From Blochmannia endosymbiont of Camponotus nipponensis (GTDB taxonomy: Bacteria; Pseudomonadota; Gammaproteobacteria; Enterobacterales; Enterobacteriaceae): DNA of 32,000 nucleotides. This document shows positions 3,371 to 29,538 of the stretch, piece by piece. The first letter of the stretch is position 1, and each line of letters starts with the position of its first letter. The notes under the pieces were generated by a model, which worked only from the letters and a program-made list of their open reading frames with translations, was not told the DNA's origin and searched no databases. The stretch spans positions 150,001 to 182,000 of the forward strand of contig NZ_CP046534.1 in assembly GCF_009827135.1 (NCBI RefSeq), given 5' to 3'. The position numbers and the translations under genes were made by a program.

Positions 3371-3739
3371 TTATTTTATTTTAGATCGTTCCACCAATTC
3401 TATATATGCCATTGGAGCGTTGTCCCCTTTACGTAATCCACATTTTAGTACACGAGTATACCCTCCAGGACGATTAAAAAAATGTGGACTAATTTGTGTA
3501 AATAATTTTGTAACAACATTATTATTCCTGATTTTAGAAAAAACTAAACGACGATTTGCAACAGTATCTACTTTACCATATGTGATCAACGGTTCAATTA
3601 TACAACGCAATGCTTTAGCTTTAGATAAAGTAGTTTTTATAATTTGATGAGTTATTAAAGAAATAACCATATTTCTAAACATAGATTTACGATGAGCACT
3701 AGTTCGATTTAATTTAGAACCACTCTTGCGATGACGCAT
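3371..3739 (-). CDS. rplQ: 50S ribosomal protein L17
   Basis: MRHRKSG..LNR..HR..MFRNM...[21 protein letters not shown] matches E. coli L17. Last gene of the alpha operon. Confidence 0.97.
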
Positions 3740-3784
3740 AATAAATTTACCTTTATTTTTTCATACTAAATTAATTGTAAAACA

Positions 3785-4777
3785 TTAATTATCTAAAATA
3801 TTTTTCGGGGGCCAATTTTCTAACCGTGTCCCTAAAAATAATCCACGAGATGCCAATACATCTTTTATCTCTGTCAAAGATTTTTTTCCCAAATTGGGAG
3901 TTTTTAATAACTCTACTTCTGTTCGTTGTACTAAATCCCCAATATAATGAATAGACTCCGCTTTAAGACAATTAGCGGAACGTACAGTAAGCTCTAAATC
4001 ATCCACAAGACGTAATAAAATTGGATCAAATTCTGGCTTTTCTTCTTTATGTTCTGGTTGATGTATATCCCTTAAATCTACAAAAGCTTCTAATTGTTCA
4101 GATAAAATTGTTGCTGCACGCCTAATCGCTTCCTCCGGTTCTATGGTACCATCAGTTTCCATATCAATAATTAATTTGTCTAAATCGGTACGTTGTTCAA
4201 CACGAGCAGCTTCCACATTATAAGAAATTCTTTCTACCGGACTATAACATGCATCCAATAATAATCGACCAATTGGCAAGGTATCTGATTCAGGATTAAA
4301 CCTCGCAGAAGCTGGAACATAACCTCGGCCACGTTGTACCTTAATACGCATACTAATAGATGCATTTTTATCGGTTATATGGCATATCACATGATCTGGC
4401 GTAATAATTTTTACACTATTACTATCATACAAAATATCATTTGCAATTACAGGTCCAATACCAGATTTTTGCAAAGTTAAAATGACATAATCTTTTCCTT
4501 CAATCCTGATAGCTAATTTCTTTAGATTCAGCAAAACTTCTAAAATATCTTCTTGTATACCTTCTTTTGTACTATATTCATGTAATACTCCATCAATTTC
4601 AACCTCTGTTATAGCGTATCCAGGCATTGAAGAAAGTAATATACGACGTAAGGCATTTCCTAAAGTATGACCAAACCCTCGTTCCAAAGGCTCTAGAGTA
4701 ACCTTAGTATGGGTTTCAGTAATCTGCTCAATACCCACTAAACGTGGCTTTAAAAATTCTATTACAGAATTCTGCAT
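3785..4777 (-). CDS. rpoA: DNA-directed RNA polymerase subunit alpha
   Basis: From [14 protein letters not shown] the ORF is near-identical to E. coli RpoA ([40 protein letters not shown]..). The ORF-track start at 4816 is a GTG extension overlapping rpsD. AGAGAGG lies upstream of the ATG ATG pair, and the second ATG (4777) is chosen. Confidence 0.95.
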
Positions 4778-4812
4778 CATTGCCTCTCTTTTTATTATTT
4801 TACAACTTTCAC

Positions 4813-5436
4813 TCACTTTGAATATAACTCAACAATCAAGTGTTCATCAATATTTGCAGACAATTCACTACGTTCTGGATAACGTTTAAATAAACCTTGT
4901 AGTTTCACAGGATCAACCGAAATCCATGCTATATCTTCTCTTTGTTGTTCAGCAAGTTCTAAGGCAGCACGAATCCTAGATTGCTGATATGATGCTTTAT
5001 GTATCTTAATAACAGCGTTGGGACAAACCTGATATGAAGCTATGTTAACAACGCGGTTATCGACCATAATGGACTTATGACTCACTAATTGACGAGCTTC
5101 GGCACGTGTCGCTCCAAATCCCATACGATATACAATATTATCTAATCTACTTTCTAATAATTTCAACAAATTTTCACCAGTATTACCTTTAATACGTGAA
5201 GCCTTTTTATAATAATTAGAAAATTGACGTTCTAAAATACCATATATACGTCTAACTTTTTGTTTTTCTCGTAGCTGTATTCCATAATCTGAAAACCGGG
5301 ATTTACGGATACTATGTTGACCCGGAAGTTGTTCAAGTTTACATTTAGAATCAATTGAACGAATTCCAGATTTTAAAAAAAGATCCGTACCTTCACGACG
5401 ACTTAATTTAAGTTTAGGTCCTAAATATTTTGCCAT
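4813..5436 (-). CDS. rpsD: 30S ribosomal protein S4
   Basis: [24 protein letters not shown] matches the E. coli S4 N-terminus. The 9 extra upstream codons in the ORF track are rejected. Confidence 0.96.
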
Positions 5437-5473
5437 ACATTTTGTTTCCTTCAAAATAACCAATTAATATTCT

Positions 5474-5866
5474 TTAGACACGTCGTTTTTTAGCAGGACG
5501 ACAACCATTATGAGGAATTGGAGTAACATCAGTAATACTAACAATATGAAATCCTGCTGTATTTAACGCTCGTACTGCAGATTCACGCCCCGGGCCTGGT
5601 CCTTTAACCATAACTTCTAAATTTTTTACTCCATATTCTTGAACTATTTCAGCGCAACGTTCAGCTGCTACCTGCGCGGCGAATGGTGTAGATTTACGAG
5701 ACCCACGAAATCCAGAACCACCAGCTGTAGTCCATCCTAAAGTATTACCTTGTTTATCACTAATAGTAATAATAGTGTTGTTAAAAGATGCATGTATATG
5801 TGCTACACCATCTAAAATTTGTTTTTTAAGCCGCCTGCGTGCTCGAAGATTAGGTGATTTAATCAT
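5474..5866 (-). CDS. rpsK: 30S ribosomal protein S11
   Basis: [52 protein letters not shown] matches E. coli S11. Confidence 0.97.
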
Positions 5867-5903
5867 TTTATATTTGTAATTTCTTTTTTATTAATACTGT
5901 TAT

Positions 5904-6260
5904 TTATTTATTTATTAATTTACGAGGACCTTTACGAGTTCTTGCATTTGTTCTAGTTCTTTGCCCTCGTACTGGCAAACTACGGCGATGACGTAATCCT
6001 CGATACGTACCAAGATCTATCAAACGTTTAATATTTAAAGTCACTTCACGACGTAAATCCCCTTCTACAATATATTTATCAACTGCATCACGTAATTTAT
6101 CTATGTGTATGTCAGATAATTTAGAAAGCTGTATATGTTCATTTATCCCTATATTTAAACAAATTGAGCGAGCACGAGATTTCCCTATACCATAAATGGA
6201 CATTAAAGCAATCACGGCATGTTTTCGATCAGAAATATTGACACCTGCAATACGTATCAC
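5904..6260 (-). CDS. rpsM: 30S ribosomal protein S13 (GTG start)
   Basis: [21 protein letters not shown]...[27 protein letters not shown] matches E. coli S13. The start codon at 6260-6258 is GTG. Confidence 0.97.
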
Positions 6261-24885: not shown

Positions 24886-25172
24886 AATTTCATTTTCCTC
24901 TTACAATAAATAAAATATTAATCGCCATATATCACAGAAACATCCCTATGTTGATGTAAAAAATTAAATATTCAAAATTCAAACATTTAAACTACTAAAT
25001 ATTAAAATACATTTTTATACACTCACATACTAATATAATATGAATTATAAATATAACAATACTCGATTATAACTGCTTTATCATATCTACTAATCTGAAG
25101 GAATATAAATAAATAACCATTTTGCATAATAATTATAGTTTAATAAAAATTTCCATGGTAAGAATAATAGCA

Positions 25173-26147
25173 CTATTTGCAATATGCTTCATTTTTTCTC
25201 AATATATTTATTAATTTTTTTATATCCTTTGGCAAAGGTATATCCCATTGCATTTTTACTTTAGTAATAGGATGATGTAATTGTAATGTGGTTGCATGTA
25301 ACGCTTGGCGATTAAAAGCATGTAAATAATTATTAAGTTCATCAGGGGCACCTTTATTAAAACACATAAGTTTTCCATATTTTTGATCTCCTAGTAATGG
25401 ATGATTAATATAAGCCATATGTACACGAATTTGGTGAGTCCTTCCAGTTTCAAGGCGTATACGAATTCTAGTATACATATTAAACGATTCTATAATAGAA
25501 TAATGCGTTATAGCAGATTTGCCCATAGGATTAACTGCCATGCGAGTACGATGAATAGCATGTCTTTTAATAGGTTCATCTACCGTTCCTTCTTTATGCA
25601 AAAAATTTCCTAAAACTACCGCTTCATATTCTTTAATGATTTTTCGTTTTTTAAACAATTGCAATAAACTATAATATGCAATAACATTTTTAGCGATAAC
25701 CATTAACCCGGTAGTATCTTTGTCTAGACGTTGAACAATACCCGCTCGAAAAACTTTTCTAATAGATGGATATTTATATAACAAAGCATTTAACACAGTA
25801 CCTGAAAAATTTCCAGCTCCGGGATGAACTACCATATTCCTCGCTTTGTTGATCACCAGAATATCATTGTCTTCATATACAATGTTAAGAGGAATATCTT
25901 GAGGAACTATGCTATTGTTAACATTGATAACATTTTTTATTTGAATAAATTCACCCCCTATCATTTTTTTTTTAGGTAAAATAACTGTCTGGTTATTAAC
26001 ATTTACCTTTTTAGAAAGGATCCAATGTTTTATTTGAGAACGCGAATAATTTGCTAGTAATTCAGAAAGAACACAATCTAAACGTTTCCCAGATTGCGAT
26101 TTCCGCACAACCATAGGCTTTATAACACAATATTCAGGTGTCACCAT
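25173..26147 (-). CDS. rluD: 23S rRNA pseudouridine(1911/1915/1917) synthase RluD
   Basis: 324 aa. S4-like N-terminus (RLD..L.E....YSRS.IK.WIL...V.VN), catalytic HRLDKDTTGL-type motif (VQRLDKDTTGLMVIAK), and ETGRTHQIRVHM. Same position and strand relative to clpB and bamD as in E. coli. Confidence 0.94.
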   Translation of the reverse strand: MVTPEYCVIKPMVVRKSQSGKRLDCVLSELLANYSRSQIKHWILSKKVNVNNQTVILPKKKMIGGEFIQIKNVINVNNSIVPQDIPLNIVYEDNDILVINKARNMVVHPGAGNFSGTVLNALLYKYPSIRKVFRAGIVQRLDKDTTGLMVIAKNVIAYYSLLQLFKKRKIIKEYEAVVLGNFLHKEGTVDEPIKRHAIHRTRMAVNPMGKSAITHYSIIESFNMYTRIRIRLETGRTHQIRVHMAYINHPLLGDQKYGKLMCFNKGAPDELNNYLHAFNRQALHATTLQLHHPITKVKMQWDIPLPKDIKKLINILRKNEAYCK

Positions 26148-26163
26148 TTCAATATACGATGAA

Positions 26164-26246
26164 ATATAAAAGGCTAATTAAATTATTATATGATACATTT
26201 TACTTAAATAAATGTATCATATAATAATTTAATTAGCCTTTTATAT
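26164..26246. repeat. perfect palindrome: 37-bp arms (26164-26200 and 26210-26246) around a 9-nt centre
   Basis: Every one of the 37 position pairs (p with 52410-p) was checked by hand and is Watson-Crick complementary. Left arm is ATATAAAAGGCTAATTAAATTATTATATGATACATTT; centre is TACTTAAAT. It occupies 83 of the 126 nt between the divergent rluD and bamD start codons. Confidence 0.95.
26185..26225. promoter_or_regulatory. candidate mirror-image divergent promoters inside the palindrome
   Basis: Consensus TATAAT at 26220-26225 on the + strand (49 nt before the bamD ATG), and its mirror copy at 26190-26185 on the - strand (38 nt before the rluD ATG). The -35 regions are weak (TTTACT with a 15-nt spacer). 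TATAAT is common by chance in AT-rich DNA. Confidence 0.25.
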
Positions 26247-26273
26247 ACTACGTGAAATATTAACAAAAGTTTT

Positions 26274-27017
26274 ATGAAACGAACTCAAAACCATATAATG
26301 ATCATGTTGATCATTAGTCTCATTGTGACTTCCTCTTCCACTGCTTCTATTCATACTGTCAATTATTCTACCTATAATCTTTATAAATCTGTTCAAAAAA
26401 AACTACATAACACCGATTATAAAGAAGCTATACAAGATCTAACAAATTTAAAAAATTTAAATTTGTTTGACCCTTGTCCACAACAAATTCATTTAGATTT
26501 AATTTATGCTTCTTACAAATCAAACGAATTAAAATCAGCAAATAATTATATAAAACATTTTTTTAAATTATATCCTAATCACAAACATTTTGATTATATA
26601 TTATATATGCACGGTATAATTAACATGCATTTAGATGAAGACAATAAAATATTAATAAAATATCTAAACAAAAACTGGTTTGATCGCAACCCAATACATG
26701 CATGTACAGCATTTCATAGTTTCAAAAAACTTATATGTAAATATCCAAATAGCCGATATTCCGCAGATGCTCAGAAACGTTTAATTTTTTTAAAAAACAG
26801 AATAGCTGAATATGAACTATCTATTATAACTTTTTATGCAAAAAGAAATGCTTATATATCAGTAATAACGCGCGCAGAAAAAATGTTATATCGTTTTCCA
26901 GATACTCAAGCAACCCGTCAAGCACTACATTATATGCAACAAGCATATAAAAATATATATTTACCAGATCAAGCAAATAAAGTAGCGAAAATTATTGCCA
27001 TCAATCCAATATATTGA
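26274..27017 (+). CDS. bamD: outer-membrane protein assembly factor BamD (no lipobox cysteine)
   Basis: 247 aa, collinear with E. coli BamD/YfiO (QQ.HLDLIYA.YK...L..A...I..F..L.P.H....Y..YM.G......D; YPNS.Y..DA.KRL.FLK.R.A.YE.S....Y..R.A...V..R.E.ML..FPDTQATR.AL..M..AY; A.KVAKIIA.N). The N-terminus MKRTQNHIMIMLIISLIVTSSSTAS has a hydrophobic core but no Cys; the first Cys is residue 68. Confidence 0.9.
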   Translation: MKRTQNHIMIMLIISLIVTSSSTASIHTVNYSTYNLYKSVQKKLHNTDYKEAIQDLTNLKNLNLFDPCPQQIHLDLIYASYKSNELKSANNYIKHFFKLYPNHKHFDYILYMHGIINMHLDEDNKILIKYLNKNWFDRNPIHACTAFHSFKKLICKYPNSRYSADAQKRLIFLKNRIAEYELSIITFYAKRNAYISVITRAEKMLYRFPDTQATRQALHYMQQAYKNIYLPDQANKVAKIIAINPIY

Positions 27018-27232
27018 TTCAATAACTTTATAAACATTTTATCTCCATATAGATATCATACAAACCCAAAATAATGTTACAAGGATATATTGATATAAAG
27101 AAAATATAATATAATAAAATATTATGATACATCACGTAAATAAATGCTAACTTTCATAATACTACTACTATTATAGTACTTACATTTACCATATAAATAT
27201 TATATTGAACTGAAACTTAAAATATTACGACA

Positions 27233-28410: not shown

Positions 28411-29538
28411 TCATATATTATTTTTATAATTATTAATTTGACGTAATATTTTACGACTCTCTTTGCAAAAACGATCGGTATATGTACCAAACCAATTTTG
28501 AATTTTTTTAAATTGATTAATAAATTCTTGTTTTTTATCTCTTTCTAATAGAATTAGAATTCGACCTAATCTTCTGTAATAACGCTTAATTAACATGAGA
28601 TTATTTTTAGAAGTCATGATTATATCTGCATATAACTGCGGATCTTGATTAAATAACCGTCCTATTGTTATTAATTTTAATCGAAATGTTGGCGAAGCAA
28701 AAGATAACATTTTTGTTAAATTAATCTTTTCTTTTGATAAGTAATATCCAGTCATAAAAGTAATAAAATGACATAACCCTTGCGTGAGACTCATATATTG
28801 ATCATGTTCTCTTATATTACAGCAATGTAACCTTGCACCCCATAATCGTATTTGTTCCAACAACCATTGATATGCTTCTGGATAACGTCCCTCGCAATAA
28901 ATCACTACTTGTTTTACCATATTTCCATGATCTAGATTAAACATAGGATACAATCCTAATACTGGCCCCTCATGCGCAGCTAATATAGCATGTAAAGATA
29001 TTTTTTTTATAGATGATAAATCTACTATAATGCAGTTACTAGGTAAACATGACAATTTCCCAGCCACAACAATAACTGAATGAATTGGCACGCTAATTAC
29101 CACCATACCAGCATCCATTAATATTGACTCTGCATATATCCAGTTTTTTTTATCTAAAATGTTAACTTTATATCCCGATAAAGTTAACATTTTACAAAAA
29201 AATTGACCCATTTGTCCTGTTCCTCCAATTATAACAATTGGACCTAAATTTGGACGCAACATCTTAAATCCTTTTTTATACTCATTATGATAAGATTCAC
29301 TCATAATACAACGTAACACATCTTCCGCTAAATCCGGAGAAATACCTAATACTACTGCTTCTCTTCTCCAACAAGAAATTATTATTTCTTCTCTGTCTGG
29401 TGCATAAATAAACAACCCATCACGACTTTTTATTTCTCCTACTGCAGAAACTAATGAAATTCTTTGAGACAAAAGTTTTAACAAATCCTTATCTATTTTA
29501 TCAATTTTATTGCGTAAAATATTTAATTCCTCTATCAT
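28411..29538 (-). CDS. tyrA: bifunctional chorismate mutase / prephenate dehydrogenase (T-protein)
   Basis: 375 aa, collinear with E. coli TyrA (373 aa). CM part: L..LR..ID..DK.LL.LL..R..LV..VGE.KSR.GL.IY.P.RE. Dehydrogenase part: IGG.GQMG..F.KMLTLSGY.V.IL, GPVLGL.PMF, EAYQW.LEQI..WGARLH, and RLF.QDPQLYADIIM.S..NL.LIKRYY.R. Confidence 0.95.
   Translation of the reverse strand: MIEELNILRNKIDKIDKDLLKLLSQRISLVSAVGEIKSRDGLFIYAPDREEIIISCWRREAVVLGISPDLAEDVLRCIMSESYHNEYKKGFKMLRPNLGPIVIIGGTGQMGQFFCKMLTLSGYKVNILDKKNWIYAESILMDAGMVVISVPIHSVIVVAGKLSCLPSNCIIVDLSSIKKISLHAILAAHEGPVLGLYPMFNLDHGNMVKQVVIYCEGRYPEAYQWLLEQIRLWGARLHCCNIREHDQYMSLTQGLCHFITFMTGYYLSKEKINLTKMLSFASPTFRLKLITIGRLFNQDPQLYADIIMTSKNNLMLIKRYYRRLGRILILLERDKKQEFINQFKKIQNWFGTYTDRFCKESRKILRQINNYKNNI

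Follow-up and report, generated by a model that had tools for sequence, protein, structure and literature searches.

Template switching at imperfect inverted repeats is an established mutational mechanism in phage T4, Escherichia coli and yeast, and the hotspots studied in the laboratory involve arms of about 5-20 nt, in which a single mismatch or a few are corrected. The bacterial quasi-palindrome mutations explained by the Ripley model, such as those at the thyA and lacZ hotspots of E. coli, convert an imperfect repeat to a perfect one in a single step; they are independent of RecA, their changes cluster in one arm and the length of the sequence is kept (PMC5941160, PMC7202029). Lavi et al. 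(2018), in a study of 27,678 short inverted repeats of E. coli MG1655, described perfect repeats where relatives carry imperfect ones at the orthologous locus, and proposed that template switching keeps the inverted repeats of Proteobacteria perfect, with correction becoming stronger as the arms lengthen (PMC5941160). Related cases in eukaryotes include the expansion of a repeat at yeast GRE2 (PMC13100816) and the creation of hairpins (PMC8794818). These two papers describe arms that are homogenised and expanded near a promoter, and single events that enlarge the arms and yield a long perfect stem together with seemingly compensatory changes. Other short intergenic sequences that form hairpins are MITEs, REP-type elements and intrinsic terminators.

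The endosymbionts of the genus Blochmannia lost recA ancestrally, and the lineages associated with Camponotus have additionally lost mutS and topA (PMC4389277). [quoted passage not shown] Compared with the laboratory hotspots, the change would be large, with about 16 of 37 positions altered and an arm longer by about 11-16 bp, and it is a natural, fixed event whose mechanism we infer. In contrast to the many short repeats covered in E. coli MG1655, this is a single case with 37-nt arms in a genome without recA and mutS. The eukaryotic cases of PMC13100816 and PMC8794818 concern promoters and RNA genes, whereas for the present bacterial spacer any effect on transcription-factor binding or RNA structure would be hypothetical. 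Unlike MITEs, REP-type elements and terminators, the palindrome is single-copy in the sequence examined, brought no net insertion, has a G+C content of 13.5% in its stem and lies between two divergent gene starts.

The palindrome was found within a 32,000-nt stretch of the chromosome, hereafter the window, and its features are listed in Table 1. The two arms are exact reverse complements over all 37 pairs, and with the centre they fill 83 bp of the 126 nt that separate the two ATG codons. To place this against chance, 100 dinucleotide-preserving shuffles of the 32-kb window were searched for perfect hairpin-type inverted repeats with a loop of at most 60 nt. The longest arm averaged 11.5 nt in the shuffles and never exceeded 16 nt, while the window holds one of 37; the runner-up in the window, at 29155-29194, has perfect arms of 17 nt. 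Folded as single-stranded DNA, the spacer reaches -34.9 kcal/mol (z = -13). The first-pass annotation had given the coordinates, the perfect pairing, the share of the spacer that the palindrome occupies and its lack of any counterpart of similar length in the 32 kb, and all of these held when the sequence was checked. It had also reasoned that such perfection points to a recent origin or to self-correction, which we judge to be sound. The palindrome is thus single within the 32-kb window, and it is probably single over about 137 kb as well, since the two contigs of an independent assembly that meet here, 97 and 40 kb long, break only at this place.

Table 1. Features of the rluD-bamD region in the window.
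Feature	Position	Strand	Remarks
rluD, 23S rRNA pseudouridine synthase D	25173..26147	-	324-aa ORF; PF00849
Full divergent rluD-bamD spacer	26148..26273	.	126 nt; 16.7% G+C
Imperfect flanking direct repeat, left copy	26152..26167	+	overlaps arm by 4 nt
Left arm, rluD-proximal	26164..26200	.	37 nt; ATATAAAAGGCTAATTAAATTATTATATGATACATTT; inferred ancestral source
TATAAT toward rluD, candidate -10	26185..26190	-	read from sequence; 37 nt from rluD ATG
Centre, non-palindromic	26201..26209	.	9 nt; TACTTAAAT
Right arm, bamD-proximal	26210..26246	.	37 nt; inferred inverted copy over older sequence
TATAAT toward bamD, candidate -10	26220..26225	+	read from sequence; 48 nt from bamD ATG
Imperfect flanking direct repeat, right copy	26243..26260	+	overlaps arm by 4 nt; relatives alignable here
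bamD (yfiO)	26274..27017	+	247-aa ORF; PF13525 YfiO and PF13512

Orthologous loci were compared from the C. modoc symbiont (L083), from four lineages designated L084 to L087, from B. ocreatus, B. floridanus and B. vafer, and from E. coli K-12. The nearest relatives available for comparison share 78% RluD identity with the window; L084 and L085, both taken from Logan assemblies, stand at this level and have the same spacer sequence, while L086 and L087 share 66%. The ends of each spacer were set by start codons placed through protein alignment, and the rluD and bamD start codons of the window are consistent with those of the orthologues. Here the spacer is 126 nt long. The four nearer Blochmannia have spacers of 125, 132, about 131-134 and 131 nt; in three that are more distant the length is about 111-114, about 98-107 and about 100 nt, and E. 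coli K-12 has 134 nt. Since these lengths match, an insertion of 83 bp is excluded. The flank on the bamD side of the palindrome is identical to the two closest relatives at 19-21 of 27 positions. The centre also has its counterpart in the relatives, in the same orientation: 6-7 of the 9 loop positions are identical, and the central sequence TTAAATAAAT matches L084 at 10 of 10 positions.

No long perfect repeat was found in the spacers of the seven Blochmannia relatives, and that of E. coli has no central repeat. The relatives' spacers are not significantly structured by folding energy (z from -2.4 to +1.2). Searched one at a time for the best imperfect stem, the L084 spacer was equalled in 4/100 and 21/200 shuffles and the L086 spacer in 11/200; that of the modoc symbiont was not significant, and none of the seven was after allowing for the number tested. 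The best folds of the two closest relatives are centred at 56/125 and 62/132 of their spacers, which coincides with the centre of the palindrome in the window (58/126). When the positions orthologous to the 37 pairs were examined in the modoc symbiont and L084, 21 of 37 were complementary, against 14.7-15.8 in shuffles carried through the same realignment, where 21 was reached in 4/300 and 13/300 cases. Sliding the pairing register by 1-8 nt left only 5-16 complementary pairs of 37. Complementarity is densest among the inner 21-26 pairs. Additionally, in an alignment of four sequences both members had changed in 10 pairs, compared with 1-4 pairs in slid controls, a count from a small sample in which the structure was derived from one of the four sequences. 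Taken from two related lineages, this evidence gives moderate support to the view that the ancestor probably already carried an imperfect palindrome here, with arms of about 21-26 nt that were some 70-75% complementary.

The direction of copying was examined by local alignment of the arm to the two closest relatives under three scoring schemes, with dinucleotide shuffles as the null. Against the relatives' rluD-side segment the arm aligned over nearly its full length, with p values of 0.003-0.14 for the modoc symbiont and 0.009-0.027 for L084. Against the reverse complement of their bamD-side segment, the scores were at chance level or below (p 0.6-0.99). The difference between the two scores had p values of at most 0.07, mostly at most 0.01. 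The bamD-side segments of these relatives are themselves identical to each other at 30 of 44 positions and include a fully conserved block, ATACATATTGTTT. The asymmetry of the local alignments, together with this conservation on the bamD side, indicates that the left arm is ancestral and the right arm its inverted copy, and the right arm thus appears to have taken the place of some 37 nt ahead of bamD that had been conserved until then. Two other comparisons were less telling. Gapped global alignment of each arm to the relatives gave identities of 22-27 of 37, no better than aligned shuffles, and at positions of mismatch between a relative's two arms, the base in the window agrees with the left one 6-9 times and with the right one 5-7 times, a mixed result.

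The palindrome is probably best explained by an origin in place, through a quasi-palindrome template-switch mutation during replication. The ancestral spacer would have been about 125-130 nt long, with a weak imperfect palindrome about its centre. Once beyond the centre, a nascent strand would have turned back on itself at this imperfect palindrome, or paired there with the sister strand, copied the rluD-proximal 37 nt as their reverse complement, and returned to the proper template near a microhomology at the outer end, TTTTATAT. The arm ends in TTTTATAT, and TTTATGT or CCATAT stands at this outer return point in the relatives. Such copying would have overwritten 37 nt on the bamD side at an unchanged spacer length, and would have perfected the palindrome and extended it outward by about 11-16 bp, through one event or several. 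The replacement of one arm in place, the kept length, the centre that was not inverted, the quasi-palindrome already in register and the similarity at the outer end together form the signature of a template switch. The first-pass annotation had listed such a mutation among five possible readings, none of them preferred over the others, and it is the one favoured by the alignment of the orthologous spacers, which shows no net change in length, an imperfect repeat in the relatives, a centre and one arm with orthologues, and the other arm replaced.

Once formed, the long arms could be re-homogenised by the same mechanism, so their perfection does not require selection. By a rough estimate, the 74 paired bases would stay free of mismatches for about 1 million years at an assumed neutral rate of about 1e-8 per site per year. 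The loss of mutS may help events of this kind to persist, and with recA lost, RecA-dependent gene conversion between the arms is unlikely. It is possible that bamD now lies behind a mirror copy of any core promoter elements of rluD in the left arm. The intact bamD reading frame signifies that the new upstream sequence is tolerated, and no more than that.

Selection could alternatively keep the symmetry, if the palindrome served as a mirror-image bidirectional promoter, as an operator for a dimeric protein, or as a cruciform that couples rluD and bamD; this reading is compatible with an origin by template switching. The outward-facing TATAAT hexamers reported in the first-pass annotation are indeed present, one in each arm and at a plausible distance from the start codon that it faces. 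The relatives are partly complementary in the same register, with changes on both sides of pairs, and the site is flanked by divergent genes, an arrangement in which negative supercoils build up, with topA missing from this lineage (PMC4389277). However, TATAAT occurs at a density of 3.8/kb in the window and in 6% of its 37-mers. Promoter-like sites in the spacer region are no more numerous than in shuffles; the best site of the promoter scan matches at 9 of 12 positions (TTTACT-18-AATAAT at 26199-26228), and matches to the -35 element are poor. In the aligned relatives the rluD-side hexamer reads TACAAT (L084), TACAAC (modoc symbiont) and TATAAA (L086), so that the key final T is missing in two lineages. 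The relatives' spacers also lack significant structure, the E. coli spacer has no central repeat, functional palindromes seldom require perfection at 37 of 37 pairs, and Blochmannia retains very few regulators. We therefore regard selection on the symmetry as unlikely. A more specific proposal, in which a cruciform extruded by supercoiling would hide both mirrored -10 elements and so create a shared, supercoil-sensitive promoter, and the copy would have been fixed for giving bamD the rluD promoter, must count as a long shot. It is possible that bamD now lies behind a mirror copy of any core promoter elements of rluD in the left arm. The intact bamD reading frame signifies that the new upstream sequence is tolerated, and no more than that.

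Another route independent of RecA, for example the repair of a double-strand break close to the spacer centre with priming from a folded-back end, would give the same end product, in which one arm is an inverted copy and the centre is kept, and the absence of recA (PMC4389277) suits it. Such repair usually alters the length or duplicates the flanks, though, and here the spacer length was kept to within a few nucleotides; moreover, an in-register quasi-palindrome that was already present is the classic substrate for template switching. We consider this route rather improbable, and template switching at the older imperfect palindrome remains the preferred origin.

Whether the palindrome could have been made by the assembly was also considered, as the sole data behind the CP046534 genome are 151-bp Illumina reads, which were assembled with Velvet followed by GapCloser, BWA and Geneious, and finished with manual extension (PMC7365800). 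An independent check was provided by the Logan assembly of the same raw run, SRR10605340. Two of its contigs (97 and 40 kb) match the window without any difference across the 11,021 and 5,784 nt compared, and they stop 30 nt into the left arm and 30 nt into the right arm, respectively. Both ends carry the same 30-mer, TCATATAATAATTTAATTAGCCTTTTATAT, and the next base is T in the contig that holds rluD and A in the one that holds bamD. A break exactly at this locus might seem to count in favour of an artefact, the more so since the genome is gap-filled, and de Bruijn contigs can have fold-back ends, as in L084, where perfect inverted repeats stand at both ends of the contig. Any genuine inverted repeat with arms of more than 30 nt, however, forces a branch at its outer end in a de Bruijn graph of k = 31, which accounts for a break at k-1 = 30 nt, while in fold-back chimeras the copied arm is never connected to the opposite flank, so that they cannot produce the observed branch. 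Both junctions between flank and arm are k-mer paths in the independent assembly and run into the 97-kb and 40-kb contigs, so that no fewer than 30 perfect pairs have support from outside the deposited assembly.

For the loop and the innermost 7 nt of each arm, the sequence is that of the gap-filled GenBank record alone; the inner arm ends and the loop resemble the centre of the relatives, and the spacer as closed is of ancestral length. Reads of 151 nt are long enough to cross an 83-bp element, and the authors of the genome report a mapping check of all bases (PMC7365800). An assembly or gap-closing artefact, which the first-pass annotation had kept among its readings, is for these reasons very unlikely, and the palindrome is a real feature of the chromosome.

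The first-pass annotation had further suggested a MITE-like element with a degenerate target-site duplication. The symmetry of the termini is compatible with this, and the imperfect direct repeat that it had noted at the outer ends is present, with 15 of 17 aligned columns matching, a level attained by 9/1000 shuffles. This reading is nonetheless contradicted, and a mobile element is scarcely conceivable: compared with the spacers of seven Blochmannia and E. coli no length has been gained, the relatives have orthologues of the centre and the left arm and counterparts of both flanks, the direct repeat runs into the arms and is interrupted by indels, and the 32-kb window holds no further copy of the 37-mer at up to 3 mismatches besides the two arms, nor was an exact match found in the JGI metagenome contigs, a collection unlikely to include the C. 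nipponensis symbiont. A MITE or other insertion was accordingly rejected on spacer length and orthology. As there was no net insertion, the flanking repeat is probably not a target-site duplication; it gives no evidence of transposition, and the template-switch account leaves it unexplained.

Several other identities were considered and rejected. An intrinsic terminator does not fit a stem of such low G+C content that lacks a T-tract; a terminator scan of the spacer was empty, and both flanking genes start here. Searches against Rfam gave nothing at gathering level in the spacer, and a permissive scan returned only generic hairpin matches to eukaryotic microRNA precursors, at 22-30 bits against thresholds of 71-119. 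A replication origin or terminus was dismissed because GC skew is negative throughout and cumulative skew falls steadily, with no turn at 26.2 kb.

Gene order is strictly conserved among Blochmannia relatives (PMC4389277), and some differences were observed around the palindrome. The RluD protein of the window is 100% identical to an RluD held at NCBI. According to precomputed hits, the S4-domain match (PF01479) carried by most other Blochmannia and enterobacterial RluD proteins listed is missing from RluD here and in the two closest relatives (P0002 and P0003), which suggests that the N-terminal RNA-binding domain may be degenerate in these three symbionts. In E. coli, yfiH separates clpB from rluD, and raiA and the pheL leader are found in the interval from bamD to pheA; compared with this E. 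coli locus (L090), all three are absent from the window (24886-25172 and 27018-27232). As pheL is absent, pheA has no attenuator leader peptide. In L086 the clpB region (3731-5981 of Logan contig SRR32934366_51) consists of several short reading frames with weak Clp_N and AAA matches and is probably a pseudogene, whereas clpB is intact, at 858-862 aa, in the window and in the other relatives wherever it is fully covered.

Inverted repeats were also seen at two other places. The tyrA coding sequence of the window (KMLTLSGYKVNIL) holds one at 29147-29202, with 25-nt arms that are 92% matched and a perfect core of 17 nt separated by a 6-nt loop (29155-29171 and 29178-29194). These 17 perfect pairs lie narrowly above the shuffle maximum of 16 (n=100), and the repeat could be a second product of template switching, in coding DNA. 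In L084 (Logan contig SRR21069170_14728) the perfect inverted repeats at the contig ends (1-52 and 5970-6010) have arms of 25 and 18 nt and sit downstream of pheA and of clpB. They may be either natural terminator hairpins that stopped the assembler or fold-back artefacts of the de Bruijn graph. Long perfect hairpins thus coincide with contig ends in short-read assemblies of Blochmannia.

The type of mutation proposed here is already known, and what is new is an unusually large and clean natural example, with 37-nt arms and about 16 positions rewritten. Long palindromes break short-read assemblies at their own site and may for this reason be under-reported. The genome lacks recA and mutS, and in it some 37 bp of conserved DNA ahead of bamD, an essential gene of outer-membrane assembly, would have been swapped for the mirror image of the sequence upstream of rluD, affecting the promoter region of two housekeeping genes. 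If the copy holds the core promoter of rluD, promoter mirroring would be a simple route to co-regulation. The supposedly static, reduced genomes of endosymbionts can, on this evidence, still rewrite promoter regions by multi-nucleotide jumps.
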